Virus record (IMG/VR): IMGVR_UViG_3300045960_000114
Location: 32,001 to 96,000 of that record
Source of the DNA: a virus
Length of the DNA: 64,000 nucleotides
Direction: 5' to 3' (one strand)
A program made the translations under genes and the position numbers. Below the pieces are notes generated by a model, which was not told the origin of the DNA, made no database searches, and saw only the letters and a list, made by a program, of their open reading frames with translations. Of the stretch, positions 4,449 through 50,789 are shown in pieces. The first letter of the stretch is position 1. Each line of letters begins with the position of its first letter.

Positions 4449-4449
4449 C

Positions 4450-10337: not shown

Positions 10338-10429
10338 GCCGAGGCAGTTGTAGTGCTTGATGCTGTTCGTTCAGGCGGTTAGCTGCCAGTGAGGCAGGCC
10401 GCAAGGGATAACAAAGGGAGGTTCACACC

Positions 10430-11371: not shown

Positions 11372-11393
11372 GTCTGGTAGGTCTTGCAGAATC

Positions 11394-11430
11394 GGGTGTG
11401 GGTCGCGCACAGCGGCCCACACCCTTCTTC
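11394..11430 (+). terminator. Probable intrinsic terminator after the capsid gene
   Basis: 13-bp stem gggtgtgggtcgc/gcggcccacaccc (one G-U) followed by ttcttc (weak U-tract). Confidence 0.55.
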
Positions 11431-11444
11431 CGGGGTAGGTCGCG

Positions 11445-12731: not shown

Positions 12732-12745
12732 GCGGGAGTTGAAGC

Positions 12746-13222: not shown

Positions 13223-13232
13223 GGAGATAGAC

Positions 13233-13478
13233 ATGCGAACTCTGATCACGAACACGTCTGGCGCGAGCAAGTTCTTCGGCTTCATCCCCCCGCACGGCGC
13301 GCAGCTTGATAACGGCGCCAACGTGGTGGTGGATGGCGACCTGGCTACGGTGCTGGCTGGCGGGCGGAACCGCTACAGCCGAAAGACCGAGCTGCACGCC
13401 ATGAAGACTGCCGTTGCCAACGGCGAGGTCACGGTTGCTGATCTGCCGGATACCTCTTCCAGCAGCAGCTCGATCTAG
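13233..13478 (+). CDS. Small virion protein ending in Ser6-Ile
   Basis: AAGGAG RBS at 13221; ATG 13233. Confidence 0.75.
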   Translation: MRTLITNTSGASKFFGFIPPHGAQLDNGANVVVDGDLATVLAGGRNRYSRKTELHAMKTAVANGEVTVADLPDTSSSSSSI

Positions 13479-13521
13479 CTTTTCGCGACGCGGCCAGGTG
13501 TAATGGCCGGTAAGTCGGTTG

Positions 13522-13562
13522 CCGCGCGGCAGAAAACCCCGACTGCCGCGCGGTTTTTCTTT
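13522..13562 (+). terminator. Intrinsic terminator closing the head module
   Basis: ccgcgcggcag-10 nt-ctgccgcgcgg followed by tttttcttt. Confidence 0.75.
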
Positions 13563-13588
13563 AGGGGGTGGCGCCAGGGGGTGCGAAC

Positions 13589-14518: not shown

Positions 14519-14528
14519 GGGGGCTGGA

Positions 14529-15146
14529 ATGCTTGACCTGTTTTTTGGACAAAGCCGCCTGGCAGAACAGAAGGTTCGCTCGTTTTTGAAGACGGCACAG
14601 GCAGGGCCGCCGCCCGGCGGTCCCCCGCCTGGCCCGCCAGGCGGTATGCCGCCAGGACCCCCAGGCATGCCGCCTGGCCCTCAAGGGCCGCCGCCGCCTC
14701 CGTGGGATCCCATGGCGCCGCCTGGAATGCCGAAGAACCCCCCATCAGCGCAGAAGACACCTGATCAGATTCCTTATGCCCAGCGCGCGCAGTTGCAGGG
14801 CAAGGAGTATGAGATGGACCCGCTGGCCGCCACGCAGGGGCTGGATATCCTGAGCCACGGCGCGAAGCAGAATCCGCAGCGGTTCACGCTGGGCCAGCGG
14901 ATGATGGAACCGCCGGCTGCGGTCGGCAGGCGTATCAAGCGCGCGCTCAGCAACCTGAAGCAGCGGCAGTTCCTGGAAGGGAAGATCAAGCACGACCCCC
15001 GCAAGGGGCGCACGCAGGGTGAGGAAGTCACTAAGGCGCTTTCGGACAAGGCACATGGCGATCTCCTGGGCGGCAGAAGCGACGATGTCGTCAAGTATCT
15101 GGCTAAGAAGCGAGTGGAGTTGGCGCTCAAGTCAGGAGACAAATGA
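14529..15146 (+). CDS. Pro/Gly-rich low-complexity protein
   Basis: FLKTA followed by GPPPGGPPPGPPGGMPPGPPGMPPGPQGPPPPPW. Confidence 0.65.
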   Translation: MLDLFFGQSRLAEQKVRSFLKTAQAGPPPGGPPPGPPGGMPPGPPGMPPGPQGPPPPPWDPMAPPGMPKNPPSAQKTPDQIPYAQRAQLQGKEYEMDPLAATQGLDILSHGAKQNPQRFTLGQRMMEPPAAVGRRIKRALSNLKQRQFLEGKIKHDPRKGRTQGEEVTKALSDKAHGDLLGGRSDDVVKYLAKKRVELALKSGDK

Positions 15147-16117
15147 CCGCACCGTCCCACCTACCCGGCGGCCTGCCGTCGACGATCTATAACCCGGCGG
15201 ATGTAGTCCGTCTGGAATGTGGCGTGTTCAAGCGCATCCAGACGGTCGTCCAGCCGTTGGGTGGGAACCTGATCGCGTGGGAGCTGTTTGAGGGTTTCCG
15301 GTCTCCGGGGCCGTACCACTTCTACGTGGACTTCGGGCGTTCGGGTACGAACGAGTGGGAAGTGCTGAACCAGCAGCCGATCATCGATTCATGCGCATTC
15401 TACGACCTGGCGCAGCGACATTGGGACCACTTTATCGATTTCTACTATAGGGTGCGGCTAGTTCTTCCGTCGCTGGTCAACCCAGATGGTTCCTGCGTTG
15501 TTCATGTCAGCCAACCGCAGCAGGCCAATGGTGCGCTGGCCAAGCGCGACTGGCTGGTCATGCGCGAGATCTGCCGCAAGGAGTACCTGCTTCAACGCAA
15601 ACGCACGAACGTCAACAACGTGGGGTGGATCCTCAAGCGGAGACGCTGGGGTGTCTCCTGTGACAAATGCAAGGAGTATGACACCCTTGAAGTTCAGAAG
15701 ACTTCGTGTGATCAGTGCTTCGGGACTGGCTTCATAGGGGGCTACTTCCGGGGAATCGATTTCAGGGTCACCATGGATGCGCCGTGGGGCCGCGAGTTCA
15801 AGCGTGACGAGACGGTGTCGCTGACGAACAACACCCAGCGCAAAGGCCGAGTGGTTGCCTACCCGTATCTCGACACGAACGATATCTACGTGCGGAAGGA
15901 TACCGGTGACCGGTACTTCGTGAACGCGCTGGAGACGCTGGCGGAAGTAAGCGGTGTTCCGATCGTCCTGAATGTGGAGTTAAGGCTTGCCCCCGTCACG
16001 GATCCCATTTACAACGTGCCCGTCAACGGATGGCAGTCGAGCTCATCCTCAAGCTCGCAATCGCCTGGTGCTAAATGTGGACCAGAGGCTGGCTTGAAAG
16101 TCGATAACGACTGGTAA
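15143..16117 (+). CDS. Putative neck/head-closure protein with Cys4 zinc motif
   Basis: CDKC...CDQCFGTGFIGGY; beta-rich C-terminus; Ser7 at 16037-16057; position in the neck region. Confidence 0.55.
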   Translation: MTAPSHLPGGLPSTIYNPADVVRLECGVFKRIQTVVQPLGGNLIAWELFEGFRSPGPYHFYVDFGRSGTNEWEVLNQQPIIDSCAFYDLAQRHWDHFIDFYYRVRLVLPSLVNPDGSCVVHVSQPQQANGALAKRDWLVMREICRKEYLLQRKRTNVNNVGWILKRRRWGVSCDKCKEYDTLEVQKTSCDQCFGTGFIGGYFRGIDFRVTMDAPWGREFKRDETVSLTNNTQRKGRVVAYPYLDTNDIYVRKDTGDRYFVNALETLAEVSGVPIVLNVELRLAPVTDPIYNVPVNGWQSSSSSSSQSPGAKCGPEAGLKVDNDW

Positions 16118-16140
16118 TAATAGGGGTTGGAGGTTCCACC

Positions 16141-16779
16141 ATGGCAAAGATGCCGATTGACAAGCTGACCGAGTTGGCACGCAAGAAGCCCTGGCTGGTC
16201 GGCGCACTTGCCGGCGGTGCATTAGGCGCGCCGATAGGGCTCATGCGATCCGACGAAGGCGAGGAGATGCGCGGCGCATTGGCCGGCGGACTGACTGGCG
16301 CAGGTGTTGGCGCGCTCGGTGGAATGGGCGCGAAGAAACTGCAGGATGTGATTGATGCCATCGCCACGCGCGGCCAGCAGATCGCGGCTGCCGGTGGTGT
16401 CGGTGGATTGGTTGGTGGCGCGGTTGGTGCGTCCAAGATGGCGCCGTGGGTGAAGAAACGCCTGATGCGTCAGGCGGGCGGCGAACCTGAGATGGCAGAA
16501 GAAGAAAATAAGGAGGCTCAAATGGCCAACGAGACTGAAAAGGTGGTCAAGGATTTGACCAAGGACATGCCCGCTGAGAAGCAGGCTGAGCAGGAGAAGG
16601 TCGCGTCGGATCGCGTCAACTCCTTCGATTTCGGCATTGACCTGTTCTGTCAGGAGAACGGGCTCAACAAGCAGGCATTCGCCGAGATGCTCGGTTTCGA
16701 GAACGAGAAGGACATGGCGCAGGGGATCATCGAATGCCTGGTCAGCAACCAGCAGGAAGCGCCGAAGGCAAACGCCTGA
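16141..16779 (+). CDS. Gly-zipper protein with K-x-A motifs; possible internal start at 16522
   Basis: GGAGG RBS; three GxxxG segments; KEA, KQA, KVA, KQA. Confidence 0.75.
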   Translation: MAKMPIDKLTELARKKPWLVGALAGGALGAPIGLMRSDEGEEMRGALAGGLTGAGVGALGGMGAKKLQDVIDAIATRGQQIAAAGGVGGLVGGAVGASKMAPWVKKRLMRQAGGEPEMAEEENKEAQMANETEKVVKDLTKDMPAEKQAEQEKVASDRVNSFDFGIDLFCQENGLNKQAFAEMLGFENEKDMAQGIIECLVSNQQEAPKANA

Positions 16780-20387: not shown

Positions 20388-20400
20388 AGTTGGAATGGGC

Positions 20401-20432
20401 GGGGGCAGCCGGGCCGCAATCCGGCTGCCCCC
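20401..20432 (+). other. Intergenic 12-bp GC hairpin after the sheath gene, no U-tract
   Basis: gggggcagccgg-gccgcaat-ccggctgccccc. Confidence 0.6.
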
Positions 20433-20445
20433 CGAGGGAGATGTG

Positions 20446-20721
20446 ATGACGAAGAGCGCCGAATACCTGATCTGCCAGGCTTTGGAAGAGAAGCAGGCGT
20501 ACCCGGCTGTGTTGCAGGCGATCTACGAGAAGGGTGTTCAGCCGATCGCCAGTGGGATCGAGCGAACGCCAAAGGCATTGAGCCAGATTCTGGGTCGACT
20601 TAAGGGCGTACCTTCGCAGCAGGCGGCAGCATTGGCGCACAAGCGCATGCTGGACGCAGCAGCTGCGGCAGCGTACATGAGTAAGATGAAGAGCAGGCCG
20701 ATGATTGGTGCCGGCAGCTAA
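20446..20721 (+). CDS. Small K-x-A-motif protein inserted between sheath and tube genes
   Basis: GAGGGAG RBS; MTKSAEYLI, EEKQA. Confidence 0.65.
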   Translation: MTKSAEYLICQALEEKQAYPAVLQAIYEKGVQPIASGIERTPKALSQILGRLKGVPSQQAAALAHKRMLDAAAAAAYMSKMKSRPMIGAGS

Positions 20722-20733: not shown

Positions 20734-21204
20734 ATGGCAAGAGACATCTACAACCGCAACGTTGAGCTTGGTTCGCCCATGGCTGCTGATGCCATCCGGG
20801 TTCTCCTGTCGGAAATCGGTGACGCGGACTTCCTGATGCAGTCCGTCAATTTCCGATACCAACAGACCATCACGCGTCTGTGGGAACTGGGTTCCGTCCG
20901 GGTGTTCATGTTCGCCGGGCGCACAGAAGGCGACATCCAGGCCAAGCGGGTGATTGGCCCGAAGAATGTCCAGCTGGGATTCGTCGAGAAGTACGGCGAC
21001 GTCTGTAACATGCAGAACAACCACATGACGCTGAAGCTGCAGCCTGGCTGCACGAGCATCGGTCAATTCGGCGAAGGTACGCTGACAGCCTCCGGTGTGG
21101 TGATCAACTCTGTATCGTACGCCATTCAGGCACAGGACAAGATCATCAACGAAGAGATGGCGATGATGTTCGTGCTGATGGAAAAGGGCGGCAGCGCCGG
21201 CTAA
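20734..21204 (+). CDS. Tail tube protein
   Basis: AAGGAG RBS; 156 aa, beta-rich; follows the sheath gene. Confidence 0.75.
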   Translation: MARDIYNRNVELGSPMAADAIRVLLSEIGDADFLMQSVNFRYQQTITRLWELGSVRVFMFAGRTEGDIQAKRVIGPKNVQLGFVEKYGDVCNMQNNHMTLKLQPGCTSIGQFGEGTLTASGVVINSVSYAIQAQDKIINEEMAMMFVLMEKGGSAG

Positions 21205-21263
21205 CGGCTACGCCCAAACGTACCGGGTGATCCTGGTAACGGAAACAGAAGCAGGGCAAGTAG

Positions 21264-23843
21264 ATGGCATTTACTCCTCAATCACTGATCAGAAAGTCTG
21301 ATCAGGCAGCCCATAACCAAGAGCTGTCTGGAAGCCTGTTTCTAATCGGCTCGATCGACGACGCCTTCGCTTACGCGGGCGTCTACACTGTCCGTTCAGG
21401 CGGGTGGGCGCCATTCACGGCGGTGGATATACGGCAGACATCCTGCGTCCCACTAGGTGCGCGCTCGATCAACACCTACCAGCCCAAGACGCGTGTCCTG
21501 ATCTACTTCGATCCGATGCTGGACACACCCATTATCCTGGGCGCCGTCCCGCGTGCTACGGCCAGCGCTCAGCTGGTTCTGCCCACCTCGATAGTACCCA
21601 GAAGCCGAGCAGGCTTCGTAGAAGATCCCGCCCATTACGCCTCCTTCACAGATCCACGAACGCACTACGCTGACTTCTCTGGCGGCAAGGCCATTGACTC
21701 CCTGCCGGGCGACTGGGGCAGCTTGAACGACCTCGGTGTCGGCTTCGTGGCTGGCAGGCTGATGGCCATGCTGAAGGCCAGCGAGGGCGCGCAGATCCAG
21801 GCGTTCTGGGGCGACGATCTTCTGCGGATCGTAGGCTACAACTACGAGCTGTTCAACGCGCTGGGCGAGGATCGACGCTACAACGATGAGGGCGAGTGCA
21901 ACGGCATTGAGATGGAGACGGCCTACGCCTGGGAAAGCCTTGGTTCGGCTAAAAAAGAGAATGATCCGTCACGTACTGAGTCGGGCGAGCTGAAGTTCGG
22001 TGCCGAGTACACCCCGTCAGAGCCCAAAGTAGATGACCAACTCATGTGGCCGCGCCGGGTGCTGTTCAAGGGTTATCTGGGCGACCTGCGGCGTGAGATC
22101 ATTTGCGCGCCCGATTTCGACTCGGATCCGATCAACAAATTCAGCGCGGAAACTACGAAGTATCGCGGGCTGGCGCAGATGCATCAGTCGAGCGACGGCA
22201 CCATCTTCATGCGCAGCGCGAAGGCCGTCGTGCTCGAGAAGTACAGCATCATCCCGGTGCCCAAGGAGAAGAAAGCGCCGGAAGACCCGACGGGCGATAC
22301 CAAACGGTCCAGTGACAAATTCGCTGGCGAGGGCGCGAACGTACCCGATTACAAGTGGGGGTCAGATGATCCATCGCTGCGCGCAGCTCAATTCTACGAC
22401 TACATCGCTTATGCGCTCAACAAGTACAGCACCGACGGGTTGGTGAAGCACAAGAAGGATTGGTACTACCCCGAAGAATCGGACATTGAGAAGCCGGTTG
22501 ATAAGACGGTCTACGACAAATCGTTGGACGTGTTGAAGCAGAAATTCGTGCTGGAATTGCCTACTTCTGTGGGGCTGAAGATCGATCACAGAACGGGAAG
22601 AGATTCTGTTAGGTATTACAAGGCTCGGTCCGTCATAGCGCAAGGTGATGACGGGTCGATACTTATAGAGGACGGGTTTGGCAGCTCGATCCATATGAGC
22701 GGCGGCAACATCCAGATCACCTGTCCCGGCGACGTCTTCCTGCGACCCGGGCGCAGCCTGGTGGCTATGGCTCCGTTTGATGCGGTCATCCGGGCGGGCA
22801 ACTCGGCAGACATCTCAGCGGCTAAGAAAGACGTGCGCATCAAGGCCGAACGCAACTGCATGATCATGGGCGGCAATGACAGCAGCCCGTACGGTGGCGT
22901 GCTGATCGAGAGCCGCGCGAATTCGAAGGTGACAGCTGCCGACCTCACTGAAGATGGCGAGCGGACAAAGCTGCGCGGGATCATCCTGAAGTCGCCCAGA
23001 TCCAACGTGTACAGCTACAGCCTGAACACGTACATCGGGGCGACACAGCAGGTGACCATGGACGTGCCAGAAGGCATCGTCTACACGTCGGCCAGGGAGG
23101 TCAGGTCAAAGCTGACCAGCTTGAACATTCTGTCGACGTCCGGAAACAAACAGCTGATGTCGCTTAACCCCGGCAAGTCTGTCATCTCGACGATGCTGGA
23201 CATCGGTGGCGCGGTCCGTATCGCGGACGCCGGCGGCGGCGACAGCCTGACGGTCGGTGGTTCGGTGATCATCCATGGCGGCATGAAGATTGGCAGCGGC
23301 ATCCAGAACAACGGTCCGTTCCAGTCGCGTACGTGGCCATACGTCGTTGAAATGAAGCGGGATGTCGATCTTGGCACCAAGCCGCAGCTGATCGCGCAGG
23401 AGATCAAGCAGGACGTTGCTGATGCGAACGAGAGCATTCAGGAAACAGAGAAGGAAGTCAGGACGGATGTCAATTCCCCGGTTCAGCTGAAGAGCAAGCT
23501 GGGCTTCTCCTTCCGCGACACGGTACTGGACCTGAAACTCGATTCGGACACCTTTGTGCTCTATGAGAGCCGCTGGCAACAGCTGCTGCGTAACGGACAA
23601 AATGGTAGTGGCACAGAGTGGGTTGAGCCGGAAGTGAAGTCGATGATTGGCGGCAAGGGCCAACCGTATCCAGGTTACACCGGTTGGTCGTCATGGAGCG
23701 CGTATGGGAAGGTGGATCTGCAGAACTTCGATCTGACGAAGGGTTATGCCAAGATGCGTGATTCGCTGAAGGAACAGGGCAAGTCGCCAACCAAGGCAAC
23801 ACTGAAATCAGCCTACAAGGTTGTCAAATTCGCGGAGGGATAA
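21264..23843 (+). CDS. Baseplate central spike (T4 gp5/VgrG-like)
   Basis: N-terminal OB-fold-like pattern; beta-helix-type repeats DGSILIEDGFGSSIHMSGGNIQITCPGDVFLRPGRSLV. Confidence 0.6.
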   Translation: MAFTPQSLIRKSDQAAHNQELSGSLFLIGSIDDAFAYAGVYTVRSGGWAPFTAVDIRQTSCVPLGARSINTYQPKTRVLIYFDPMLDTPIILGAVPRATASAQLVLPTSIVPRSRAGFVEDPAHYASFTDPRTHYADFSGGKAIDSLPGDWGSLNDLGVGFVAGRLMAMLKASEGAQIQAFWGDDLLRIVGYNYELFNALGEDRRYNDEGECNGIEMETAYAWESLGSAKKENDPSRTESGELKFGAEYTPSEPKVDDQLMWPRRVLFKGYLGDLRREIICAPDFDSDPINKFSAETTKYRGLAQMHQSSDGTIFMRSAKAVVLEKYSIIPVPKEKKAPEDPTGDTKRSSDKFAGEGANVPDYKWGSDDPSLRAAQFYDYIAYALNKYSTDGLVKHKKDWYYPEESDIEKPVDKTVYDKSLDVLKQKFVLELPTSVGLKIDHRTGRDSVRYYKARSVIAQGDDGSILIEDGFGSSIHMSGGNIQITCPGDVFLRPGRSLVAMAPFDAVIRAGNSADISAAKKDVRIKAERNCMIMGGNDSSPYGGVLIESRANSKVTAADLTEDGERTKLRGIILKSPRSNVYSYSLNTYIGATQQVTMDVPEGIVYTSAREVRSKLTSLNILSTSGNKQLMSLNPGKSVISTMLDIGGAVRIADAGGGDSLTVGGSVIIHGGMKIGSGIQNNGPFQSRTWPYVVEMKRDVDLGTKPQLIAQEIKQDVADANESIQETEKEVRTDVNSPVQLKSKLGFSFRDTVLDLKLDSDTFVLYESRWQQLLRNGQNGSGTEWVEPEVKSMIGGKGQPYPGYTGWSSWSAYGKVDLQNFDLTKGYAKMRDSLKEQGKSPTKATLKSAYKVVKFAEG

Positions 23844-23846
23844 ACG

Positions 23847-24578
23847 ATGCCTGACGGTTTCAGCACCCCAGCCGGCAAGAAGTTCCCAGAACCGGTGCCG
23901 GTTGAAATGGTCGACGAGGCCAGGCGGGAGGAGTACGCCGACATCACGCCTGACATTGAGGAGCCCAAGGTGCCAGAGGCGGCTCCTGCGGCAGCCCCAG
24001 TCGACCAGGTGCTAGAGGAGAAGATCGAAGCCATCTCTGATGAGGTTATCAGCTTCGTCAACGACGGCTTCCGCATGCATTTCCGCAAAGGACTGCTGGT
24101 GCTGGTGGAACCTATTCCGAAGGAAGACCTGGCCCAGCCGACTGATGATGACAAGAAGGAATTCGTAAGGAGCATCTTCGGAAGCACGGCCTACACGAAG
24201 AAGTACGTGCTGTTTGGCGGCTGCGAGGCGTTGTTCAAAGATCGTGGCGTAGCTGAGACGGAAGGTATGTACGAGGACATCAATAAATTGCATAAGAGCG
24301 GTGAAATCAATCTGGACAACGAAGCTGAAGCCACGTTGTGGATCCGCCGCTATCAGATGGCTGAGACGCTGGTGTACGTCAAGCTGCCGGATGGGACGGC
24401 AGTGTATTCCCGGGGGGAAAATTCGGACCGGAAGCAGCGCGTGAAGAAGCTATTGGAGCTGGCGCGTCCGCTTTATCAGGCTGCCTACGACACGGCGATT
24501 GACTTTGAGCGCCACATTGAGCTGCTGACGCAGAAGGCGCGTGACCCGGGTTTTTGGCGAGCCGGTGGTACAAGCTGA
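23847..24578 (+). CDS. Tail assembly chaperone (gpG analog)
   Basis: GGAGG RBS; ends just after the in-phase slippery heptamer G GGT TTT. Confidence 0.6.
   Translation: MPDGFSTPAGKKFPEPVPVEMVDEARREEYADITPDIEEPKVPEAAPAAAPVDQVLEEKIEAISDEVISFVNDGFRMHFRKGLLVLVEPIPKEDLAQPTDDDKKEFVRSIFGSTAYTKKYVLFGGCEALFKDRGVAETEGMYEDINKLHKSGEINLDNEAEATLWIRRYQMAETLVYVKLPDGTAVYSRGENSDRKQRVKKLLELARPLYQAAYDTAIDFERHIELLTQKARDPGFWRAGGTS
24548..24554 (+). other. Programmed -1 ribosomal frameshift site (GGGTTTT)
   Basis: X XXY YYZ phase is correct for ORF 23847; the -1 frame is open to 25084. Confidence 0.7.
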
Positions 24579-25084
24579 GCGTGAAGGCGTTCACACGCGG
24601 CATCTTGGACTATCCGGCGATCGACCAGCGTGACTGGAAGTGGTGGCTAAAAGAGGATCTGGCGTTGGCCGAACTGGAGGACGAGCAGATCACGGAGATG
24701 AACCGCCTGTCACATATGTGGCATTGTTCTGCCGCGCAGGTGACGGGTTGGGATGAGAAGGAGGATCTGTTCAACCACCACAAACGCCAGGCACATCACG
24801 CATACAACGTCATAGGCAAGGCCATTTTACCGTGGTATAAGAGTTGGAGATCAGAGGAAATAACTCTGGGTGAACTGTGGCGTCGGTTCAAGGAACAAGA
24901 GAAGGATCCGGCTTACGCGGCGGAACTTGCCAGGGACCGTGAAAGGCTGCGCCAGAAGGTTCGAGATACCGCAGCGGCTCAGACGCAGGAGCTTGAGATT
25001 GCCAAGGCACGCCGGGAGGCGGACAAGCAGCGTGAGCTGGCGGCCAAGGCACGCAGACCAAGGCGGGTGAAGTATGGCGCGTAA
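24554..25084 (+). CDS. Frameshift extension of the tail chaperone (gpT analog; fusion about 412 aa)
   Basis: -1 frame relative to 23847; TTG start with no evident RBS. Confidence 0.65.
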   Translation: MASRWYKLSVKAFTRGILDYPAIDQRDWKWWLKEDLALAELEDEQITEMNRLSHMWHCSAAQVTGWDEKEDLFNHHKRQAHHAYNVIGKAILPWYKSWRSEEITLGELWRRFKEQEKDPAYAAELARDRERLRQKVRDTAAAQTQELEIAKARREADKQRELAAKARRPRRVKYGA

Positions 25085-26381
25085 ACTTGTCGGACACGAC
25101 GGGCCGGCGCCCAAGGGCGGCGGCAATGCGCAGATCAAAGCGCTTGCCGAGTCGATGTCGAAGTTTGCGAATGGCGCGTCTGTGGCGCCGGTCATAGTTA
25201 AGGTGCCGGAGCCCGGCAAACACACGCACACCCACACCGAGAAGGTAGGTCCGGCGACCGCAAAAACAGAACGTATAATTGAGCGGCTGCCTGCTGGTCT
25301 ATCATCCGACACCGAATCAGTACAGCGTGTGCTATCCCCCCACAACAAGAACGAGCCGCCTGCGGCTGGCCGCGCGCTGCAGCTGATGCGTGCGCAGCAG
25401 GACGTAGAGGCGGGAAAGGGTAAGCCTAACGCCGAGCTGACCCACATCACGCGACTGATCCGGGAGGGCGGCCATAAAGCGGCTGCGGGAGTACCTCCCG
25501 AACGAGTAAGGGAGATTCTTCAGAATACCACCAGTACGATCCAGCTACCTGGCCAGTCGAAGGACCCTGACGTACGCCTTATCAATCAGAAGTTCGAAGG
25601 GCCGCTGAATCTGGCGCGCAAACGACTGAACGCACCGGATACCGGCGTGCGTATGGGTGCAGCTCAGTCAGCGCCCGACAAGCCCGTATCTGAGAGCAAG
25701 GCGATCAATGACAAGCAGGTTGTGAACCGGCTGGTGAACATGGTTGAGACCAATGAGACGTCGCACATTGGTATGGCTGACCAGGAGGCCGGCAAACCGA
25801 ATAATACGGTGATGGGTATCGGTGGGGTCAACCCGGATGCGCCTCTGGGCAACAAGGGGTTTACGCGTGGCGGGTTGATAGACGCCAAAGGCAACGCACC
25901 TGGCTTTGACCCGCGCACTGATAGGTACATCGCCAAGCATGGGAGCCAGTCGATTCTCACGCCGGCGGGTAGCCCATCCAACTGGTCTGCAGTGACACGG
26001 ATTCATCCGTCTATCACAGGCGGGCTGGTTGGTGCCTCTGGTCCTGAGGGCGACGTGAGCATGGTTCACCCCACGCCGTCATTGGTTCCGCAAAGCAGTC
26101 CTGTCTCCGCTGCAAGAGGCGCTGATCGCGTGATCTCGAGACCGCAGGGAGGAAGTAGCTCTGCCAGTGCGCTGGCGCATACCGAGGACAAGGCTCCAGC
26201 TACTCCAATCCATCCGCATGACTCGCCGGCCACTGTTCGAGGGAATGCGCCTGAAGTCATGCGGGCTTCGGGTGGCAAGGAAAGCTCAAACAACCGCAGA
26301 AGGCTCGAAGGCACCCTGAAGCTGACTGGCATGGCCGGACAGACGCTCGGCGAAGCTCAGCTCAACGCGACGGAGATGTAG
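25074..26381 (+). CDS. Low-complexity tail-associated protein in the tape-measure position
   Basis: Follows the G/GT pair; Pro/Gly/Ser-rich, not obviously helical. Confidence 0.6.
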   Translation: MARKLVGHDGPAPKGGGNAQIKALAESMSKFANGASVAPVIVKVPEPGKHTHTHTEKVGPATAKTERIIERLPAGLSSDTESVQRVLSPHNKNEPPAAGRALQLMRAQQDVEAGKGKPNAELTHITRLIREGGHKAAAGVPPERVREILQNTTSTIQLPGQSKDPDVRLINQKFEGPLNLARKRLNAPDTGVRMGAAQSAPDKPVSESKAINDKQVVNRLVNMVETNETSHIGMADQEAGKPNNTVMGIGGVNPDAPLGNKGFTRGGLIDAKGNAPGFDPRTDRYIAKHGSQSILTPAGSPSNWSAVTRIHPSITGGLVGASGPEGDVSMVHPTPSLVPQSSPVSAARGADRVISRPQGGSSSASALAHTEDKAPATPIHPHDSPATVRGNAPEVMRASGGKESSNNRRRLEGTLKLTGMAGQTLGEAQLNATEM

Positions 26382-26384
26382 TCT

Positions 26385-26867
26385 ATGCCGGACATCTTCA
26401 ACTCAAAGCCAGGGTTTGTCAGTGTCTTCACTGGCGGGTCCAACCAGGTGCTTCCCGGCAAGGTCAGGCTGGAGAATGAGAACAATCAAGCCTACGTCAT
26501 GGTGGGTGCGGATTATGACCAGGAGACGATCCAGCAATTCCAGCTGTCCATGCGCAAATCGGTCTACATCTATGTCTTTGGTGATGGCATGGGAAAGATC
26601 GTGCTGAACGGAATTCTTTTCGCTTCGACGTGTAATGGGGTCCAGGGTATGGGTGAAGTGATGCGACTCTACAACAAATACCGCGTCACCAGCGAGCAGC
26701 AAGGCGGTAAGCCTGTCAACGTCCAGCTCGACCTTGGACTGGATCAGAAGGTGATTCGGGGATACCTGACAGCGTTCACAATCAATATGAAAGGCGCTGG
26801 CTCCGACCCGGGTTCCCTCGGTCTGTTTGATTTCAGGATGACCATCAACACGCTTCCGGAGGGTTGA
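26385..26867 (+). CDS. Putative baseplate/tube-initiator protein
   Basis: 160-aa beta-rich tube-like pattern (YIYVFGDGMGKIVLNG). Confidence 0.5.
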   Translation: MPDIFNSKPGFVSVFTGGSNQVLPGKVRLENENNQAYVMVGADYDQETIQQFQLSMRKSVYIYVFGDGMGKIVLNGILFASTCNGVQGMGEVMRLYNKYRVTSEQQGGKPVNVQLDLGLDQKVIRGYLTAFTINMKGAGSDPGSLGLFDFRMTINTLPEG

Positions 26868-26868
26868 T

Positions 26869-27690
26869 ATGATCAACCATGCGCGCACACTGCTGCTTAA
26901 CAAGGACGGAAACAAGCGTCCAGGTACCGATTTCTATCTGGAGGAGTTTGTCGATCCGACGTTCCGGGTTTTGAGCTATTCCCAGGAGTTGACGGAGCTG
27001 CGCACCGTGCTTGTAGGCCGTTCACCCGATGATGGTTATCTCAACTTCCGCCTCAGGCAGTACATGACTCTGTTAGACAGCACAGAATTCGTAACGTACG
27101 TAGAGGCGCTCGATCCGCGCATCACGTACACAGGCCAGTCACCTGACGTTCAGCGCACCTACAATAAAGCCACAGCCCTGCAGGCTGAGCCGACCAGCAG
27201 CTCGTCGTCTTCGTCCTCTCCGAGCAGCGGAAGCGGCGATATCCTATTCGTGGGTGACATCGTGACGCTACCCTCAGTCGTCTATTATAAGTGGCGAATC
27301 GACGTGATTGCCCCGTTCGTGGTGAGAACCACGTTCAATCGGACTCAGCAGTATGTCGATACGGTTGTGACCATTTCGGATGGCATCACCAGCCCGATCG
27401 CCATGGCGGGTCAGCCCTCGTTCAACGTCAGAATCCGAGAGAATGTTTCCCTGCGCCCGGGTGACGCGTGGAACATCGAGTCATTCGTCGCGCCGACTGA
27501 CGATATGGCGGGCGTCGTGACACAGCTTAATGAGACTAACCCTCAGTATCTCGGTTACGTTTTCCCGTCTACAGAGCCGTACAAGACGTTCAAGGACCTG
27601 TGGAAGAAGCAGGAGATACTGTCTTACCAACTCAGTGGCTTGCTCCTGGCGTGGATCTACCGTGCCGAGGAGGAGCGCTTGCATGGCTAG
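26869..27690 (+). CDS. Putative baseplate protein with poly-Ser linker
   Basis: Operon position; TSSSSSSSSPSSGSG. Confidence 0.6.
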   Translation: MINHARTLLLNKDGNKRPGTDFYLEEFVDPTFRVLSYSQELTELRTVLVGRSPDDGYLNFRLRQYMTLLDSTEFVTYVEALDPRITYTGQSPDVQRTYNKATALQAEPTSSSSSSSSPSSGSGDILFVGDIVTLPSVVYYKWRIDVIAPFVVRTTFNRTQQYVDTVVTISDGITSPIAMAGQPSFNVRIRENVSLRPGDAWNIESFVAPTDDMAGVVTQLNETNPQYLGYVFPSTEPYKTFKDLWKKQEILSYQLSGLLLAWIYRAEEERLHG

Positions 27691-29347: not shown

Positions 29348-30139
29348 GTGATAAGCGATACTCCTGAGCACAAAGAGAACAACTTCCCCGTGTGGAAGCC
29401 GGAACCACCCAAGCGAAAGCCTTCCTTGGACGAGGTTTACAGCAAGTGGAAGATGGCACCCACGCCCGGCAACTTCTCGGAGCTGCTTGACTCGGCCAGG
29501 CCGGTGATGAACTCAGCGCTCACCACCTACGCAGGCGGCAACAAGTCGTACCTGGGCCACGCCAAGCTGCTGGCAGCCAAAGCTTTCAGGACATACGACC
29601 CGACCCGGGGAGTTAAGCTGCATACTCACCTGATCACGCAGATGCAGCCGCTCATGCGCACAGCGCGCGAGCACAACATGCCAGTTTACGTGCCGGAGCG
29701 TGTGAGCATCGAGGGTGCCCACCTCAGGCGGGCTGAGCGTGAGCTGAATGAAAAACTGGGTCGGGAACCAGCTGACACTGAGTTGGCGGATCACACCGGC
29801 CTATCCTTGAAACGAATCCTCCACATCCGGAAATTCAACCGAGGTGATGTACCTGAGTCTGGGTTGACCATGCGGGCAGAAGACGGTGAGGAGGAAGTTT
29901 TTCACCCGGCCATGGAGACGAAGGACCACAACAAGGTCTTCCTGGAGTACGTTCACCACGACCTGGACCCCATCAACCAGAAGATACTGGAGTGGAAGAC
30001 AGGGCTCAATGGAGTCAGGGTGTTGTCAAACAACGAGATCGCAAGGCGGCTGAAACTGTCACCCGCAGCCATTTCGCAGCGGTCGGCGAAGATCGCGCAG
30101 ATGGTGGCTGAAGCACAATCTACGGAGGGTTTGAAATGA
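29348..30139 (+). CDS. RNA polymerase sigma factor (sigma70 family, FliA/SigB-like architecture)
   Basis: Region 2 YDPTRGVKLHTH; region 3 LGREPADTELA; region 4 HTH LSNNEIARRLKLSPAAISQR; GGAGG RBS. Confidence 0.85.
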   Translation: MISDTPEHKENNFPVWKPEPPKRKPSLDEVYSKWKMAPTPGNFSELLDSARPVMNSALTTYAGGNKSYLGHAKLLAAKAFRTYDPTRGVKLHTHLITQMQPLMRTAREHNMPVYVPERVSIEGAHLRRAERELNEKLGREPADTELADHTGLSLKRILHIRKFNRGDVPESGLTMRAEDGEEEVFHPAMETKDHNKVFLEYVHHDLDPINQKILEWKTGLNGVRVLSNNEIARRLKLSPAAISQRSAKIAQMVAEAQSTEGLK

Positions 30140-30573
30140 TCGACCCTCAACTTGAGCAAAGCGTCGTTCCATACATGATCCAGACGGAGAAGCGCATCTC
30201 GGAGAAGATGAAGGCCGGCGGCGACCGGCCCTGGCTCGATTTTGCTGATTACAAGGGACTGACTCCGGCGGGGAAGTTTGACTTTGCCAAACTGCACGAG
30301 AATTTCAACCGGAAGTCAGCCACGGATGATTACGCGAGCAAACGAAAACAACGGGATGCCCAGGTGAAGGACATCCAAACGTCCAAACTGTCGATCGACT
30401 TCCTGTCAGGCTGTGAGCGCGATTGGCGCATGCGCACGCGCAGCCGGGTCCGCATGTTCGTGCACGCAGAGGTCACCTCGCCGGCTGCCCTTGGCGACTC
30501 AGCTGGCCCGCTGCGGAAGAACACAATCGACTGGATGTCGAATATCATGGTTGAGGAGCCAGACAAGCAATGA
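30136..30573 (+). CDS. Hypothetical protein
   Basis: ATGA-coupled to both neighbours. Confidence 0.7.
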   Translation: MIDPQLEQSVVPYMIQTEKRISEKMKAGGDRPWLDFADYKGLTPAGKFDFAKLHENFNRKSATDDYASKRKQRDAQVKDIQTSKLSIDFLSGCERDWRMRTRSRVRMFVHAEVTSPAALGDSAGPLRKNTIDWMSNIMVEEPDKQ

Positions 30574-31043
30574 GCACTTCAACCAACTACAGCGGCAGGA
30601 CGGTTGACCTGCTGATTTTTCAAAACACGAAGCCCTCTGGAAACCAGAAGATCTTCATGGGATTCGGCACGGGCGGTGAGTTGACGACTGGCGTCCAGAA
30701 GGTGTCGCAGACCTTCACCACGATCCTGCTGACTGACATAGGCTCGGTGTACGACCAGCCTGATTACGGGACCGATCTGATACTGTCCATACAGTCTGGA
30801 CAGACGCAGAACGGAAGCGATCTCGAATCGGCGTTCAACATCGCAGCGGCGGCTGCAAAGTCGATCATGGATCAGGCCGCCGAAGATGCAGGTGCGCCGC
30901 CAGATGAGCGCTTGAGCACGGCTGTGCTCTCGGACTACATCCTGGACAAGAACAGTGGGAAGATCGTATTGACCGTGGTGATCACCACGGAGGCCGGTGC
31001 AAGTGCGACCATCTACCTGCCTGTGAGTGTGCCCATCACATGA
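30570..31043 (+). CDS. Baseplate wedge protein (T4 gp25/gpW-like)
   Basis: LLTDIGS...PDYGTDL motif; 157 aa. Confidence 0.7.
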   Translation: MSTSTNYSGRTVDLLIFQNTKPSGNQKIFMGFGTGGELTTGVQKVSQTFTTILLTDIGSVYDQPDYGTDLILSIQSGQTQNGSDLESAFNIAAAAAKSIMDQAAEDAGAPPDERLSTAVLSDYILDKNSGKIVLTVVITTEAGASATIYLPVSVPIT

Positions 31044-34000
31044 ACATGCGCGACCTGAAAGCGTCGTTGTATAAACGGGTGCTGACCAAGCGGGCGGCGC
31101 TGAAGCCCGACATCACCCTGCTGCCGCACCAGGAACGCGTGGTGTCCAAATGGCAGGGCGAGGACCAGCCGCCGGGCATGCTGGTCTATCACGGGCTGGG
31201 CAGCGGCAAGACCCCCACGTCGATCGCCGTCGGCGAGTCCATGCCGGGCATCAAGAACGTGGTCGTGCCTGCCGCGCTGCGCGAGAACTACCGCAAGCAG
31301 CTGCGCCAGTTCTCCACCGACCCTCGCAAGTACCATGTCATGTCTTACGAAGAGGCATTGAAAGGCAAGCCGGAATCATCGCTCACCGTTTTCGACGAGG
31401 CGCATCGGATGGGACGTGAAGGGACAGCCATTAGTATGCTGCCCCGACGGATGACAGGTAGAAAGCTGCTGCTGACAGGCACCCCGGTACGTAACGAGCC
31501 GTCGGAGATCGTGCCGCTGCTCAAGGCCATCGCCCCGGATCGGCCCATCCCGAAGACGCAGGAGGCGTTCAATCAGCAGTTTATTCGCACGCAGCTGGTT
31601 CATCCCGACATCCTCACGCGGCTGTTCCTGGGGATCAAACCAGGCGAGCGGCAGGTGTTCACGGAGCCTGAGAAGTTCAAAAAGCTGGTTGAGGGGCGTG
31701 TCGACTACCAGCCGTCGAAAGGCGAGTTCCCGGGGTTTGATGAAAAGCACATCGACGTGGACATGACACCAGAGCAGTCGGATCTGTACCGGGGCGTGAT
31801 GAGTGGCAGTCCGATGGCCTGGAAGATCCGGCTCAACCTGCCGCCTAGCAAGGCAGAATCAGCCCGGCTGAACTCGTTTTTGTCGGGTGTGCGGCAGATC
31901 TCTAATAATCCCTCCGCTTACGACAAGCGGCTGGTGGGCGACCCTGTCGATCACTCCCCGAAGCTGCAGCGTATGGTGGATGACGTGCAGAAGGGGTTGA
32001 AAAACACGGCCAACTTCAAAGGGCTGGTCTACTCGAACTACCTTGATGCCGGGATCGTGCCCATGGCCAACCGGCTGACAAAGCTGGGCATCCCCAATGC
32101 CGTCTTCACCGGCGAGCTGAATGACAAGCTGCGTAAGAAGGTCATCGAAGACTACAACAAGGGCGACATCAAGGTGCTGCTGGTGTCTGGTGCCGGATCG
32201 GAAGGGCTGGACTTGAAGGGTACCAAGATGGTACAGGTCATGGAGCCGCATTGGAACCTGGCGCGCACCAAGCAGGTGATCGGGCGCGCCATCCGTCATC
32301 AGAGCCACTCGCACCTGCCGCCGGAGGAGCGGTTTGTTACCGTCAACTGGTACCACTCGAAGCCGCAGCAATCGTTCCTGTCACGCTGGGGGCTGCTGCC
32401 GCCTGATCGCGGGGTTGATCGATACCTGTACAGCCGCGCAGTCGAGAAGCAGCAGATCATCAACCAGATGCTGAGCTCGCTGAAGGAAGTAGGCGCGCAG
32501 AAGCCGCAAGAGGCCGCGCCATTGACTAAGGCAGCATTTACCATACCCGACCCTTTACTGGATTACCTGGCTAGCGTTGCTGGTCTGAGAAAACTGCAGA
32601 CGCTGGCCCGTAAGTACCGCGCCGGCGCGTCAGCGATCGAGCAGACGGCTGACCTGCTTACTCCCCCGCGCGAGCTGACACCGGTAAAGATGGAAGAGGA
32701 GAAGGAGGCCGGCGTCAAAGCAGCGGTGGTTGATTATGCGGAAGGGCTGCCGGATCCTAAGCGTTTTGGCGACCCCCGTCAGATCCTGAAGAACAAGCTG
32801 CTCGAATGGGTTGTGCAGGAACACAAGGCGCGTCGCGCGGGTCGGCACCTGGACGTGCGCTTTGGCGAGCCGGGCGGCGGGCCGTCGCTTTATTCGTGGG
32901 CAACCAAGAAGGAGCTGCCTAAGCCGGGCGAGCGCCCGATCTCCCTGTTCCAGCAGCCGCTGCATCGCGGGACGTACGCCGATTTCCAGGGTACCATTCC
33001 GTCCGGATATGGCGCTGGCGAGGTCAAACAGCACGATCGCGGCAAGATCTCCGTGACGGAGGCCACGCGCGACAAGATCAAGTTTGTGACGCTCCACAAG
33101 GGTGACCCTGAATACTTCACTATGATCCGCCAGACTGGGGTACCCAAAAACCCCCAAACGGCGCGCATGCGGCGCACCCAGGGTGGTTCCTGGCTTCTGA
33201 TCAATACCACCCCGCTCAAAGCCGAGCAGGTGTTGGGCGGTCCCGCCAGCCAGGTGGGCATGAACAAGCTGAAGTTCACGTCCATTCCAGCTGAGAAGGT
33301 GGATAAGATCTTTGATCCGAACTTCCTGGTGCAGTCGAAGATCGACGGCGCGTCGCTGCTTTACCACGTCATGCAGGACAAGATCGAGGCGGTGTCTTAC
33401 CGGCAGAGCAAGGCTGGACGCCCGATCGTTCACACACAGCGTATGTTTGGGCTGGGCGGCGCGAAGCCCAAGGACCTGCCGCCTGAGCTGTCTGGAACCA
33501 TATTGCGCGGCGAGGCGTACGGCGTGCGCGACAATAAGGCCATACCGCCGCAGGAGCTGGGCGGGCTGCTTAATGCTTCGGCGTTGAAATCGCTGGGCGA
33601 GCAGGCGCGCCGGAAGATCCAGATGCGAAACATGGTCTTCGACGTGGTACGTCGGGGCAAGGAGCCGGTGCAGCCAGGTGAGCGCTGGAAAACGCTTGAG
33701 GAGGTCTCCAAGTACCTTCCCCCGAACCTGTTCCATCTGCCTGAGACAGCCACCACGCCTGACGAGGCCAAGTCACTGTGGAATCGCATCCAGAGTGGTG
33801 AACACCCCCTGACTAGCGAAGGTGTAATCGGCTGGCCGAAGGGCGACGGTCGGCCCGTCAAGGTCAAGGTCATGCCGGAGTCGGACGTGTGGGTAAAAGG
33901 TGTCTTCCCGGGTGAAGGGAAGTACAAAGGCACACATGCCGGCGGCTTCGAGTATGCTACTGCTCCTGAAGGCAGCGTGGTGGGCCGGGTTGGCACGGGT

Positions 34001-34855
34001 TTGTCGGACGAAGCGCGCAGAAGCCTAGCGGAAGAGCCTGAGAAGTGGGTTGACCGTATGGCGCGCATCAGGTCGCAGGGCAAGTTCCCCGGGGGTGCCC
34101 ATCGTGCGCCTTCATTCATCGCACTACACGAGGACTATCCGCAGAAGACTGCCCAGGCTGAGCCCGTGCAGGCGGGAATGACTCAGTCCAACCTGAACAA
34201 GCTCCGCGAAGCCATTGGCGCGAAAGCGCCCATACTTCGCGACCCCAAGGCTGAGCACATGGGTGTGTACGTCCACCCAGAGTCGCAGCAGTACATCAAG
34301 GGGTTGGTTGAAAAACTACCGCCCAAGACGCGCAAGACGCTGACACCGAGCTTGCGGCGCATGTTGCGTAAGTATGGCCTGATCTACGGATCCGACGTGA
34401 ATAAGCCGGCAGTAGCCGCGCATGAGATGGGTCATTCGACTGGTTCGAACGTGATGCTGCCCGTGGAGGCAGCCCAGATGAACGCCAGCCCCTTGTTTGG
34501 TGGCCTGCTGGCGAGCGGGATGGCAGCCCACACCTTGCGCAATCCGCCTATTGGATTGGGATCTTCCTTGGCGCGTGTTGGCCTGACTGGCGCGGCAGGT
34601 GCCGGCGCCGGGCTCCTGTTTCATTTACCCACCCTTTTTGAAGAGGGACGTGCCAGCCTTCGCGGCCTTAAAGCCTTGCGTGAGGCGGGTTTCTCTGATA
34701 AAGATGTTAGCGAGGCGCGTGGTGACATGTGGAATGCGTACAAGTCGTATCTTTCGCATGCTACGCTCAGGCCAGCCGCCTACGCAGCTTTAGGCACGGG
34801 TGCCGCGCTTGGCGCCACGGGCTTGAAGGCGCTCCTGAAGAAGTGGCGGAGGTAG
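31040..34855 (+). CDS. Multidomain protein: SNF2-type helicase, LigD-type 3'-phosphoesterase, ATP-dependent DNA ligase and HExxH membrane metallopeptidase
   Basis: YHGLGSGKT, DEAH, LTGTP, GSEGLDL, EPHWN, QVIGRAIR; VVQEHKARRAGRHLDVR...GYGAGEV; KIDG, GEAY, VFDVV, EGVI, VGTGLSD; AAHEMGH with hydrophobic helices. Confidence 0.85.
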   Translation: MNMRDLKASLYKRVLTKRAALKPDITLLPHQERVVSKWQGEDQPPGMLVYHGLGSGKTPTSIAVGESMPGIKNVVVPAALRENYRKQLRQFSTDPRKYHVMSYEEALKGKPESSLTVFDEAHRMGREGTAISMLPRRMTGRKLLLTGTPVRNEPSEIVPLLKAIAPDRPIPKTQEAFNQQFIRTQLVHPDILTRLFLGIKPGERQVFTEPEKFKKLVEGRVDYQPSKGEFPGFDEKHIDVDMTPEQSDLYRGVMSGSPMAWKIRLNLPPSKAESARLNSFLSGVRQISNNPSAYDKRLVGDPVDHSPKLQRMVDDVQKGLKNTANFKGLVYSNYLDAGIVPMANRLTKLGIPNAVFTGELNDKLRKKVIEDYNKGDIKVLLVSGAGSEGLDLKGTKMVQVMEPHWNLARTKQVIGRAIRHQSHSHLPPEERFVTVNWYHSKPQQSFLSRWGLLPPDRGVDRYLYSRAVEKQQIINQMLSSLKEVGAQKPQEAAPLTKAAFTIPDPLLDYLASVAGLRKLQTLARKYRAGASAIEQTADLLTPPRELTPVKMEEEKEAGVKAAVVDYAEGLPDPKRFGDPRQILKNKLLEWVVQEHKARRAGRHLDVRFGEPGGGPSLYSWATKKELPKPGERPISLFQQPLHRGTYADFQGTIPSGYGAGEVKQHDRGKISVTEATRDKIKFVTLHKGDPEYFTMIRQTGVPKNPQTARMRRTQGGSWLLINTTPLKAEQVLGGPASQVGMNKLKFTSIPAEKVDKIFDPNFLVQSKIDGASLLYHVMQDKIEAVSYRQSKAGRPIVHTQRMFGLGGAKPKDLPPELSGTILRGEAYGVRDNKAIPPQELGGLLNASALKSLGEQARRKIQMRNMVFDVVRRGKEPVQPGERWKTLEEVSKYLPPNLFHLPETATTPDEAKSLWNRIQSGEHPLTSEGVIGWPKGDGRPVKVKVMPESDVWVKGVFPGEGKYKGTHAGGFEYATAPEGSVVGRVGTGLSDEARRSLAEEPEKWVDRMARIRSQGKFPGGAHRAPSFIALHEDYPQKTAQAEPVQAGMTQSNLNKLREAIGAKAPILRDPKAEHMGVYVHPESQQYIKGLVEKLPPKTRKTLTPSLRRMLRKYGLIYGSDVNKPAVAAHEMGHSTGSNVMLPVEAAQMNASPLFGGLLASGMAAHTLRNPPIGLGSSLARVGLTGAAGAGAGLLFHLPTLFEEGRASLRGLKALREAGFSDKDVSEARGDMWNAYKSYLSHATLRPAAYAALGTGAALGATGLKALLKKWRR

Positions 34856-34858: not shown

Positions 34859-36490
34859 ATGGCCGACATCACCATCGATAGCATTGACAAGGACCAGGCA
34901 TCAGCAGCCGAAGCGTTTCTGGTCGACTGGCTGAAGGTCAACTACCCTTCACTCGATCTGAGCGAAGGGCGCGTCCTGCGCGATATCCTGATACGCCCGG
35001 CGGCCTTGTTTTACGCGCTTAACCAGACCAACCTGCAGGTGATGAAGAACTCGATGTCGGTTGCAGCCATCGAGGGCAACGTCGAGCCTGTTGACGACAC
35101 AATAGTTGACCTGACGGTTTCGAATTTCAAGCTGACCCGGATTCCGGGCGTTGTCTCGACGGGCAAGATTGCCATCGTTCTGAGCACGCTGCGCACGACC
35201 AGCGTGCCGGTGGGAACCGTCTTCACGCTGGGTGAGCTGACATTCGTCACCGAAACATCGTTCGTTGGTGTGACGACTTCTGACGCCGTGCTCGACTCGA
35301 CGACCCAGCGGTTGATCACGCAGCGCACCGACGGCAACTACTCATTCATCATCGATGTGGTTGCTAGTACGGCGGGGTCTCAGTATGCCATCCGGCGGAA
35401 TACCACGTTTGAATCGGTGTCACCGGCCATCCCGAGCATGATCACGTCGTATGCCTCTGAAGACTTCACCACGGGGCAGGCGGAAGAGACCAATCAGGAG
35501 CTGATGGCCAGATTCCAACAGGCTATCTCACCTGCTGTTTACAGCGGTAGAACCCACATTGCTTCCAGGATGCTCGCGGCCAACGAGAACATCCGCATGC
35601 TGAGCATCATCGGCTATGGCGACGCCGAGATGCTTCGTGACCGGCACAACATCTTTGCCGTCAGCCATGGCGGCAAGGCGGACATCTACGTCAGGACGCG
35701 GGATTACCCCCAGACGATCCTGGTGAACAAGACGGCCACGCTCATTGATGCCAACACGAAGACGTTCCAGGTGACGCTCGGACGTGATGATGCGCCCGGT
35801 TTCTACACCGTTGAATCGGTGCTGCCCGCCAATGCGCCGCAGGATCAGGGGACACTTGAGGTAACGAGCGTCACCAAAGGGCTGGACCTGTCGCAGACGA
35901 CCAACGAGTTCGTGCCCGAGATCGCCACGTTGATTGAGGGAGCCTACAGCCGATACCAGACGGCGGTGATCCGTTTCGTGGATCCGACCAACGACGGAAG
36001 CAACATGTCCTACGATGTTTACGTAAACTACATGCCTGGGCTGGCTGACCTTCAGAGCGACTCTATCAACAGGGACAACCGCAATCCGCAGGCAGACTAC
36101 CTGGTACGTGCGCCGATCCCAGCCTACGCGTCGGTATCGATGCTGATACAGTACACGACCTCGGAATTGCCGAATACTGATAGCATCAAGCAGGCTGTGG
36201 CTGACGCCGTGAATGCACTGACTTTCTCGCTGGGCCAGCTACCGGCTTCCATCATCCATGACGCCGTTTACACCGTTTTGGACAAGAGGTACGCCGTCGT
36301 GGTTTCTCCGTTGGACATCTACTGCCGGATCCACAAGCCGGATGGTACAATCGTTGCCATCCGGTCGCCGAATGGAATCTCGGCACCGAGCGAGCCGGAG
36401 AATTGCGTCACATCAAGAACGACGCTGTTCTACCTGACGCCGGCAAGCGTGGACATTACGTTGCAGCGCGTGCAGACGCTGCCAGTGTAG
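34859..36490 (+). CDS. Baseplate J-like wedge protein (T4 gp6 analog)
   Basis: GRVLRDILIRP, VPVGTVF, AGSQYAI, GQAEETNQELMAR; HGGKADIYV. Confidence 0.8.
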   Translation: MADITIDSIDKDQASAAEAFLVDWLKVNYPSLDLSEGRVLRDILIRPAALFYALNQTNLQVMKNSMSVAAIEGNVEPVDDTIVDLTVSNFKLTRIPGVVSTGKIAIVLSTLRTTSVPVGTVFTLGELTFVTETSFVGVTTSDAVLDSTTQRLITQRTDGNYSFIIDVVASTAGSQYAIRRNTTFESVSPAIPSMITSYASEDFTTGQAEETNQELMARFQQAISPAVYSGRTHIASRMLAANENIRMLSIIGYGDAEMLRDRHNIFAVSHGGKADIYVRTRDYPQTILVNKTATLIDANTKTFQVTLGRDDAPGFYTVESVLPANAPQDQGTLEVTSVTKGLDLSQTTNEFVPEIATLIEGAYSRYQTAVIRFVDPTNDGSNMSYDVYVNYMPGLADLQSDSINRDNRNPQADYLVRAPIPAYASVSMLIQYTTSELPNTDSIKQAVADAVNALTFSLGQLPASIIHDAVYTVLDKRYAVVVSPLDIYCRIHKPDGTIVAIRSPNGISAPSEPENCVTSRTTLFYLTPASVDITLQRVQTLPV

Positions 36491-50573: not shown

Positions 50574-50789
50574 ATGGAAGAACTGGTGGACACCATGGCA
50601 GAACTGGATGTCATCAAGCAGCTGGCTGAGATCATGGGCTCGCTCAACGACGACGGCAGGCGGCGCGCGTTGTGGTATCTGGCGGATATCTACGGTCTGT
50701 CTGGGCGTCCACAGGTGCAACCACCAACCCAGGCAAAACATTCTACGAGCAGCCCCATACCGATCGGACAGGTTAGGACCGCGCCGTAA
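50574..50789 (+). CDS. Small hypothetical protein
   Basis: GGGGGA RBS; stop overlaps the next start. Confidence 0.55.
   Translation: MEELVDTMAELDVIKQLAEIMGSLNDDGRRRALWYLADIYGLSGRPQVQPPTQAKHSTSSPIPIGQVRTAP

Follow-up and report, generated by a model that had tools for sequence, protein, structure and literature searches.

A question raised by one gene of an uncultured phage is why enzymes of unrelated activity should be strung together in a single chain; namely, whether the chain acts as one protein or is a precursor that is taken apart. The gene lies at positions 31040–34855 (plus strand) of a 64,000-nucleotide stretch, positions 32,001 to 96,000 of IMG/VR record IMGVR_UViG_3300045960_000114, the whole of which is referred to here as the window and sets the coordinates unless stated otherwise. 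The source contig is a 185,265-bp linear phage sequence with an estimated completeness of 88%. The gene is a single open frame of 1271 amino acids, and it is intact, with zero differences, in one public contig that is possibly the source DNA itself. It encodes an ATPase, a phosphoesterase–ligase pair and a metallopeptidase-like module, with the short motif K-x-A at the joints, and the same motif is found on the head protease and major capsid protein of the phage. We propose, with a probability of about 0.7, that the polyprotein is capsid cargo that is cut by the prohead protease and delivers a transcription ATPase and an end-healing ligase.

Domain architecture of the polyprotein

An earlier sequence-only reading of the window had proposed the domain order SNF2, phosphoesterase, ligase and HExxH peptidase. 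Domain mapping of the 1271-residue frame with Pfam and PHROG bears this out, and the residues that it named (K17, K497, K555, K560, K767, K1036 and H1128) are all in place. The chain begins with a 19-residue leader (31040–31096), a predicted propeptide that ends in K17-R-A. The module that follows (31097–32527) is a SNF2/NPH-I-like superfamily 2 (SF2) ATPase with its Walker A lysine at K57 and a DEAH box at residues 119–122; it matches SNF2 and Helicase_C (Pfam E = 1e-9 and 2e-14), and its best match in the PDB is vaccinia NPH-I (E = 2.5e-10), a virion transcription ATPase. After the joint K497-A-A (32528–32536), which is predicted to be disordered, comes a small helical module of ~58 residues (32537–32701) that is without known family and is common to the three closest relatives of the protein (P0002–P0004). 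It is followed by a double joint, K555-E-A and K560-A-A (32702–32725), at which relatives carry either a 75-residue module or an HD domain together with the 75-residue module.

The LigD-type 3′-phosphoesterase (PE; 32726–33205) is recognized by LigD_N (Pfam E = 5e-8) and by structure 3p4h (E = 9e-12), and its residues H595, H603, D605, R607 and Y646 are nearly invariant among ~180 homologs. It runs directly into a minimal ATP-dependent DNA ligase of NTase and OB domains (33206–34144) with an adenylated-lysine motif at K767; residues 754–1032 match PHROG 114 (E = 1.5e-17), and the ligase fold was also recovered. The metal-binding and catalytic residues of the PE and the catalytic motif of the ligase are retained, and the catalytic residues of the ligase, like those of the PE, hardly vary across the ~180 homologs. 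PRK09632 matches residues 573–999, far below its family cut-offs. All residues of the chain are accounted for, and profile scans found no polymerase domain among them; neither Ku nor another ligase was found in the 88%-complete genome.

The last joint, K1036-T-A (34145–34153), is also predicted to be disordered and leads into a zincin-like module of Gly/Ala-rich helices (34154–34852), with an HExxH motif (H1128, E1129 and H1132) and a downstream glutamate (E1202). Its match to Zn_peptidase_2 lies below the cut-off (Pfam E = 8e-4). The module had been described as a membrane peptidase; the HExxH motif is indeed at H1128, but a membrane location, weakly supported by a hydropathy peak of 1.26, is not established. 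A search for shorter forms of the module returned one contig-end fragment, and in the Atlas it returned unnamed clusters only.

K-x-A is placed at the joints

The number of K-x-A motifs in the polyprotein is ordinary; their placement is not. Six are present compared with 8.3 expected from composition, and because the total falls below expectation the positions alone matter. Five of the six are at joints, and the cores of the ATPase and the PE-ligase, for which 4.2 would be expected, hold none. When six sites were placed at random, all four edge windows were filled about 5 times per 1,000,000 simulations. The joint placement is thus real and far beyond chance. In an AlphaFold model of residues 440–1271, the low-confidence segments 487–504, 528–568 and 1033–1048 hold K497, K555/K560 and K1036, respectively, and the link between PE and ligase is ordered. 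The sixth site, K1122-P-A, lies inside the peptidase, is not conserved and is absent from the closest relatives. The claim that K-x-A stands at each junction holds, with five joint sites, but it had missed both the 58-residue module between K497 and K555 and this internal site. The accompanying claim that no K-x-A separates the PE from the ligase stands as made: there is none here, and only 7 of 183 homologs have one.

Modules are shuffled and the motif stays at their edges

We assembled 246 homologs, comprising 120 relatives (699–2225 amino acids) and 126 further representatives. In 35 the SNF2 module precedes the ligase, in 12 the ligase comes first, 144 have the ligase only and 55 the SNF2 module only; the HExxH module occurs in ~21. 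Among the 120 relatives, the ATPase and the PE-ligase are found in either order, alone, or joined to other domains that include HD, NUDIX, GNAT, SET, HAD, kinase and 2H. Pseudanabaena phage PA-SR01 encodes a helicase homolog that differs in its N terminus and its context.

In the same relatives, with the 20 residues next to a module edge counted, K-x-A precedes the ATPase in 65 of 81 cases and follows it in 51 of 70, and it flanks the PE-ligase at similar rates (41/49 before and 38/46 after). These rates of 73–84% compare with a background of 0.08–0.09 in any window and with 0.04–0.52 for control motifs. The expectation of the sequence-only reading that relatives would carry other domain combinations joined at K-x-A is thus borne out. 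Within the modules the motif is depleted to 0.20–0.24 of expectation (82 compared with 410 expected, and 71 compared with 290), whereas A-x-K and KA are near 1 and K-x-S and K-x-G are about halved. The 126 representatives replicate the pattern and show its dependence on a neighbour: K-x-A follows the ligase in 60 of the 79 proteins that continue into a further module and in 7 of the 46 in which the ligase is last (Fisher P = 4e-11, for sequences that are not independent of one another). At post-ligase joints that lack K-x-A, K-x-S or K-x-G fills 23 of 27. The motif is present with 35 of 43 unrelated upstream neighbour families and with 59 of 67 unrelated families downstream of the ligase, so kinship is not the explanation.

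The closest relatives show such changes individually. P0002–P0004 all hold the 75-residue module, which has been lost in our gene between K555 and K560, and one of them has gained an HD domain between a pair of K-E-A motifs. P0003 and P0004 have lost the ligase in frame; the PE, the last residues of the ligase and the joint before the peptidase are kept.

Separately, six relatives (P0005, P0018, P0019, P0025, P0029 and P0030) carry a short amphipathic, L-I-D-I-type peptide as an N-terminal leader, as a spacer between two K-x-A motifs or as a C-terminal tail after K-x-A. This peptide is a candidate capsid-targeting peptide.

The motif on the head protease and capsid protein

The window encodes a prohead protease (6618–8075, plus strand) with the T4 gp21/assemblin fold and invariant H118 and S170. 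Its predicted model (mean pLDDT 86) was matched by VIA-align to T4 gp21 (Z = 9.3, a moderate score; r.m.s.d. 3.3 over 140 aligned residues) and to herpesvirus assemblins (Z = 7.5 for VZV, and 5.5); VIA-align alone gave these matches, and neither sequence search against the PDB nor Foldseek returned a significant one. The protease domain is flanked by K34-x-A, found in 104 of 111 homologs, and K239-x-A, found in 111 of 111, the latter in a disordered linker immediately after the domain and mostly followed by Ser or Ala. Four further conserved residues (C180, C183, C194 and H196) are a likely zinc site inside the gp21-like fold.

The major capsid protein (10430–11371, plus strand) carries K29-E-A after an N-terminal leader, a position that is kept in Salmonella phage Arash and Vibrio phage D69 at ~30% identity. 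Judged from sequence, K-x-A on the protease and the capsid protein is a maturation-site pattern. Release and maturation sites of herpesvirus assemblins have Ala at P1, and by analogy the cut would fall after the Ala of K-x-A. Between the two genes, a protein that may be the scaffold, given its position (8116–9342, plus strand), has 14 K-x-A compared with 5.8 expected. Proteins of the head show a 2.1-fold excess overall, a figure that is partly circular and deserves little weight because the set was picked after the motifs had been seen. Tail proteins show no excess (1.07), and replication genes are not clearly depleted (0.83, and 0.90 in Arash).

Several other proteins carry the motif. A 575-residue protein encoded on the minus strand (55075–56802) has 16 K-x-A compared with 5.4 expected; the Arash virion protein gp242, with 8 K-x-A, may be its counterpart, although BLAST gave no link. 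Many small and medium-sized proteins of the head region (40–16779 and 20395–20721) combine K-x-A leaders with Gly/Ala-rich hydrophobic stretches and might act in ejection or as membrane channels. The RNA polymerase beta gene (2166 amino acids; positions 21108–27608 of the source genome, G000, ~10.9–4.4 kb before the window) has an insert at about residues 268–587, containing SET-like and 2H-like parts flanked by K-x-A, at a place where the Arash beta is continuous. The same gene appears to contain an intein. If the insert were cut at its K-x-A sites, beta would be split in the virion.

An ortholog of the ATPase in virions

Arash encodes a stand-alone ATPase of 472 residues, gp217, right after its beta-prime gene. 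Residues 23–485 of the polyprotein align with residues 2–472 of gp217 (36% identity, E = 1.6e-79), which is the span of the predicted ATPase product. Mass spectrometry of Arash virions assigned 1148 spectra and 38 unique peptides to gp217, which makes it one of the most abundant proteins there; the capsid protein had 1333 spectra and beta-prime 1210 (PMC10585845). Packaging of the helicase module is supported indirectly by this ortholog. We rejected the reported coverage of the Arash capsid protein (86.64%) as evidence of leader loss: several of the values are implausible, and the supplement holds no peptide list.

Proposed mechanism

We propose that the precursor is expressed late and enters the prohead, where the gp21/assemblin-fold protease would cut after K-x-A, probably within a broader site of K-x-[A/S/G] followed by a small residue or Glu. 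The products would be a 54-kDa SNF2 ATPase, a 6-kDa peptide, a 53-kDa PE-ligase that stays uncut and a 25-kDa zincin, which would travel along with the DNA. After entry, the ATPase would most likely serve the virion-carried multisubunit RNA polymerase, as NPH-I does in poxviruses, and the PE-ligase would heal 3′-phosphate ends and seal nicks in the incoming DNA ahead of phage gene expression. The joints would allow cargo modules to be gained, lost or reordered in frame. The proposal that this is late cargo cut by the prohead protease had already been made in the sequence-only reading; its core is strengthened by the motif shared with head protease and capsid protein, but the baseplate position and the membrane association attached to it are not.

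Several observations weigh against this mechanism. Cleavage is a prediction for this clade, and in phage SPN3US the prohead protease trims terminal propeptides only, leaving most head proteins uncut (PMC10052503). About 20–25% of joints lack K-x-A, and K1122-P-A sits just ahead of the HExxH helix of the peptidase. The Arash proteome is permissive, with 116 proteins that include replication enzymes, and its authors allow for carry-over (PMC10585845); the rank of gp217 therefore counts for more than its presence. Because gp217 lacks a leader and has two internal K-x-A, packaging does not depend on the tag, and sites within folded regions may escape cutting. No homolog of the PE-ligase is encoded by Arash. 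The ligase is also the sole one recovered from our phage genome at 88% completeness, a hint that it has a cytoplasmic role too.

A wider proposal is that K-x-A is a cut code common to an entire clade of RNA-polymerase-carrying myophages and turns any head-targeted gene, even that of RNA polymerase beta, into a modular cargo cassette, our gene delivering a poxvirus-like transcription ATPase and a pre-made end-repair ligase that guards the genome directly after injection; here we see the chances as evenly balanced. If it is true, sequences could reveal which proteins hundreds of uncultured phages inject.

Alternative explanations

The joints might be used without being cut, K-x-A serving as a binding tag on each module for the scaffold, the capsid wall or the ejection channel. 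The virion RNA polymerase of phage N4 is packaged unprocessed (PMC5512222), and short amphipathic leader-like peptides lie beside many joints, as such a tag would suggest. A binding tag, however, would need no avoidance inside folded domains, the motif stands on both sides of the protease domain, leaderless gp217 is still found in virions, and, among the 126 representatives, 32 of the 33 PE-ligases that sit so near the N terminus that a leader would hardly fit lack the motif. We consider packaging without cleavage unlikely. Quite unlikely, too, is a cytoplasmic multi-enzyme fusion, built for instance around a replicative or repair ligase, in which K-x-A is the uncut relic of fused leaders. That the genome yields one ligase and no Ku would suit it. 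Relics would decay, yet the offset of the motif is nearly fixed across 67 neighbour families, and the joint persists in the two close relatives that deleted the ligase; the gene is also tied to late structural genes, and Arash virions contain the ortholog of its ATPase.

Self-processing by the C-terminal zincin, of the kind proposed for the metallopeptidases of polyvalent proteins (PMC5512222), draws on an intact HExxH motif and Glu. We find it very improbable: the joints are marked in homologs that have no zincin, which are the large majority, and the capsid protein and head protease bear the same motif. Finally, the position of the gene might suggest that the protein belongs to the baseplate structure or acts in its assembly. 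The polyprotein frame overlaps the stop of a gp25-like baseplate wedge gene (30570–31043, plus strand) by 4 nucleotides, and a baseplate J-like gene (34859–36490, plus strand) starts 3 nucleotides after its end. The assignment to the baseplate operon holds here and in P0002–P0004 only; other homologs are located elsewhere, and in Arash nothing separates the gp25-like gene from the J-like gene. Together with the lack of K-x-A excess in tail proteins, this makes a baseplate role barely credible. The location provides late expression; it is no reason to count the protein as part of the baseplate.

Genome setting and cultured relatives

The window encodes a head module (6618–11371) and a contractile tail operon, and multisubunit RNA polymerase genes sit upstream of it in the same contig. 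Among cultured phages, Arash and Vibrio phages D69, D148 and D181 come closest, with ~30% identity in capsid protein and protease; matches to Arash extend to RNA polymerase subunits, portal, terminase, sheath, a sigma factor and baseplate genes. The PE-ligase module was not found in any cultured phage, and viral contigs yielded no related loci when searched with the J-like protein or with the ligase module. Membership among the mReC phages (PMC7481178) would call for beta and beta-prime RNA polymerases of the mReC clade; those of our phage are related to the Arash subunits by sequence match.

Other genes are of interest in their own right. The sigma factor gene (29348–30139) lies within the baseplate operon, and its Arash ortholog, gp10, was detected in virions by 467 spectra and 24 peptides. 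A heptosyltransferase-like GT9 gene (50789–52519) directly follows the tail operon, with a best NCBIfam match to Aah/TibC far below the cut-off, and structural proteins encoded near it have Ser runs. E2-like and E1-like genes (positions 121488–124576 of the source genome) are shared with Arash (gp248 and gp246), in which this cassette is open to study in a cultured phage.

Comparison with known systems

The polyprotein resembles LigD, in the mycobacterial form with its PE and LIG domain order and in the archaeal stand-alone PE, in keeping the metal-binding and catalytic residues of the PE and an ATP-dependent ligase domain. It is not a full LigD, because the polymerase domain is absent and Ku was not found in the 88%-complete genome; unlike the proteins of bacterial non-homologous end joining, it is embedded in phage cargo. 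The ATPase has its counterparts in gp217 and vaccinia NPH-I, virion SF2 ATPases of viruses that carry a multisubunit RNA polymerase; both of these stand alone, and gp217 is leaderless and encoded beside beta-prime.

With herpesvirus assemblin, the protease shares a related fold and an Ala immediately behind the protease domain, the next residue being Ser or Ala in most cases; it differs in the Lys two residues upstream and in substrates that would include enzyme cargo beyond the scaffold. T4 gp21 processes the internal head proteins IPI–III and Alt. In SPN3US, gp245 recognizes an A-X-E motif, and in both systems the known cuts come after Glu and take off propeptides at the protein ends (PMC10052503). 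Our phage is like both in the protease fold with its His and Ser, in a motif found on capsid protein, protease and cargo, and in multiple propeptide sites. In our phage, however, the motif is K-x-A and lies between enzymes, so that cutting would yield several products from one precursor; the joints show no enrichment of K-x-E and do not fit cuts after Glu of the T4 or SPN3US type.

The nearest parallel in architecture is with the polyvalent proteins of phages and conjugative elements, for which processing by a fused metallopeptidase or a fused assemblin was proposed (Iyer et al. 2017, PMC5512222). We found neither a cut motif nor a mention of LigD in that paper, and a literature search that covered few subscription journals returned nothing on a K-x-A site or this polyprotein. 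Processing of polyvalent proteins has been proposed since 2017, and we found no defined site or demonstration; here both a site and a protease are predicted, in a clade with a cultured member that grows on a laboratory strain of Salmonella, so direct testing is possible. If the mechanism holds, a tool kit for injection evolves by dropping domains between short tags, genomes allow mature cargo to be predicted, and the known injected proteins come to include a DNA end-healing ligase. Our gene is like the polyvalent proteins in its unrelated enzymes within one chain, its shuffled architectures, its SWI2/SNF2 domain, its late virion gene context (here and in the closest relatives, not in all homologs) and the packaging, processing and injection proposed for them and probable here. 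The families of that study have an MPTase zincin as their marker, for which the HExxH module, with its sub-cut-off match to Zn_peptidase_2, is a candidate counterpart. Our gene is unlike them in that its SNF2 module has no methylase partner and in that each joint is marked by a tag common to a separate head protease and the capsid protein.

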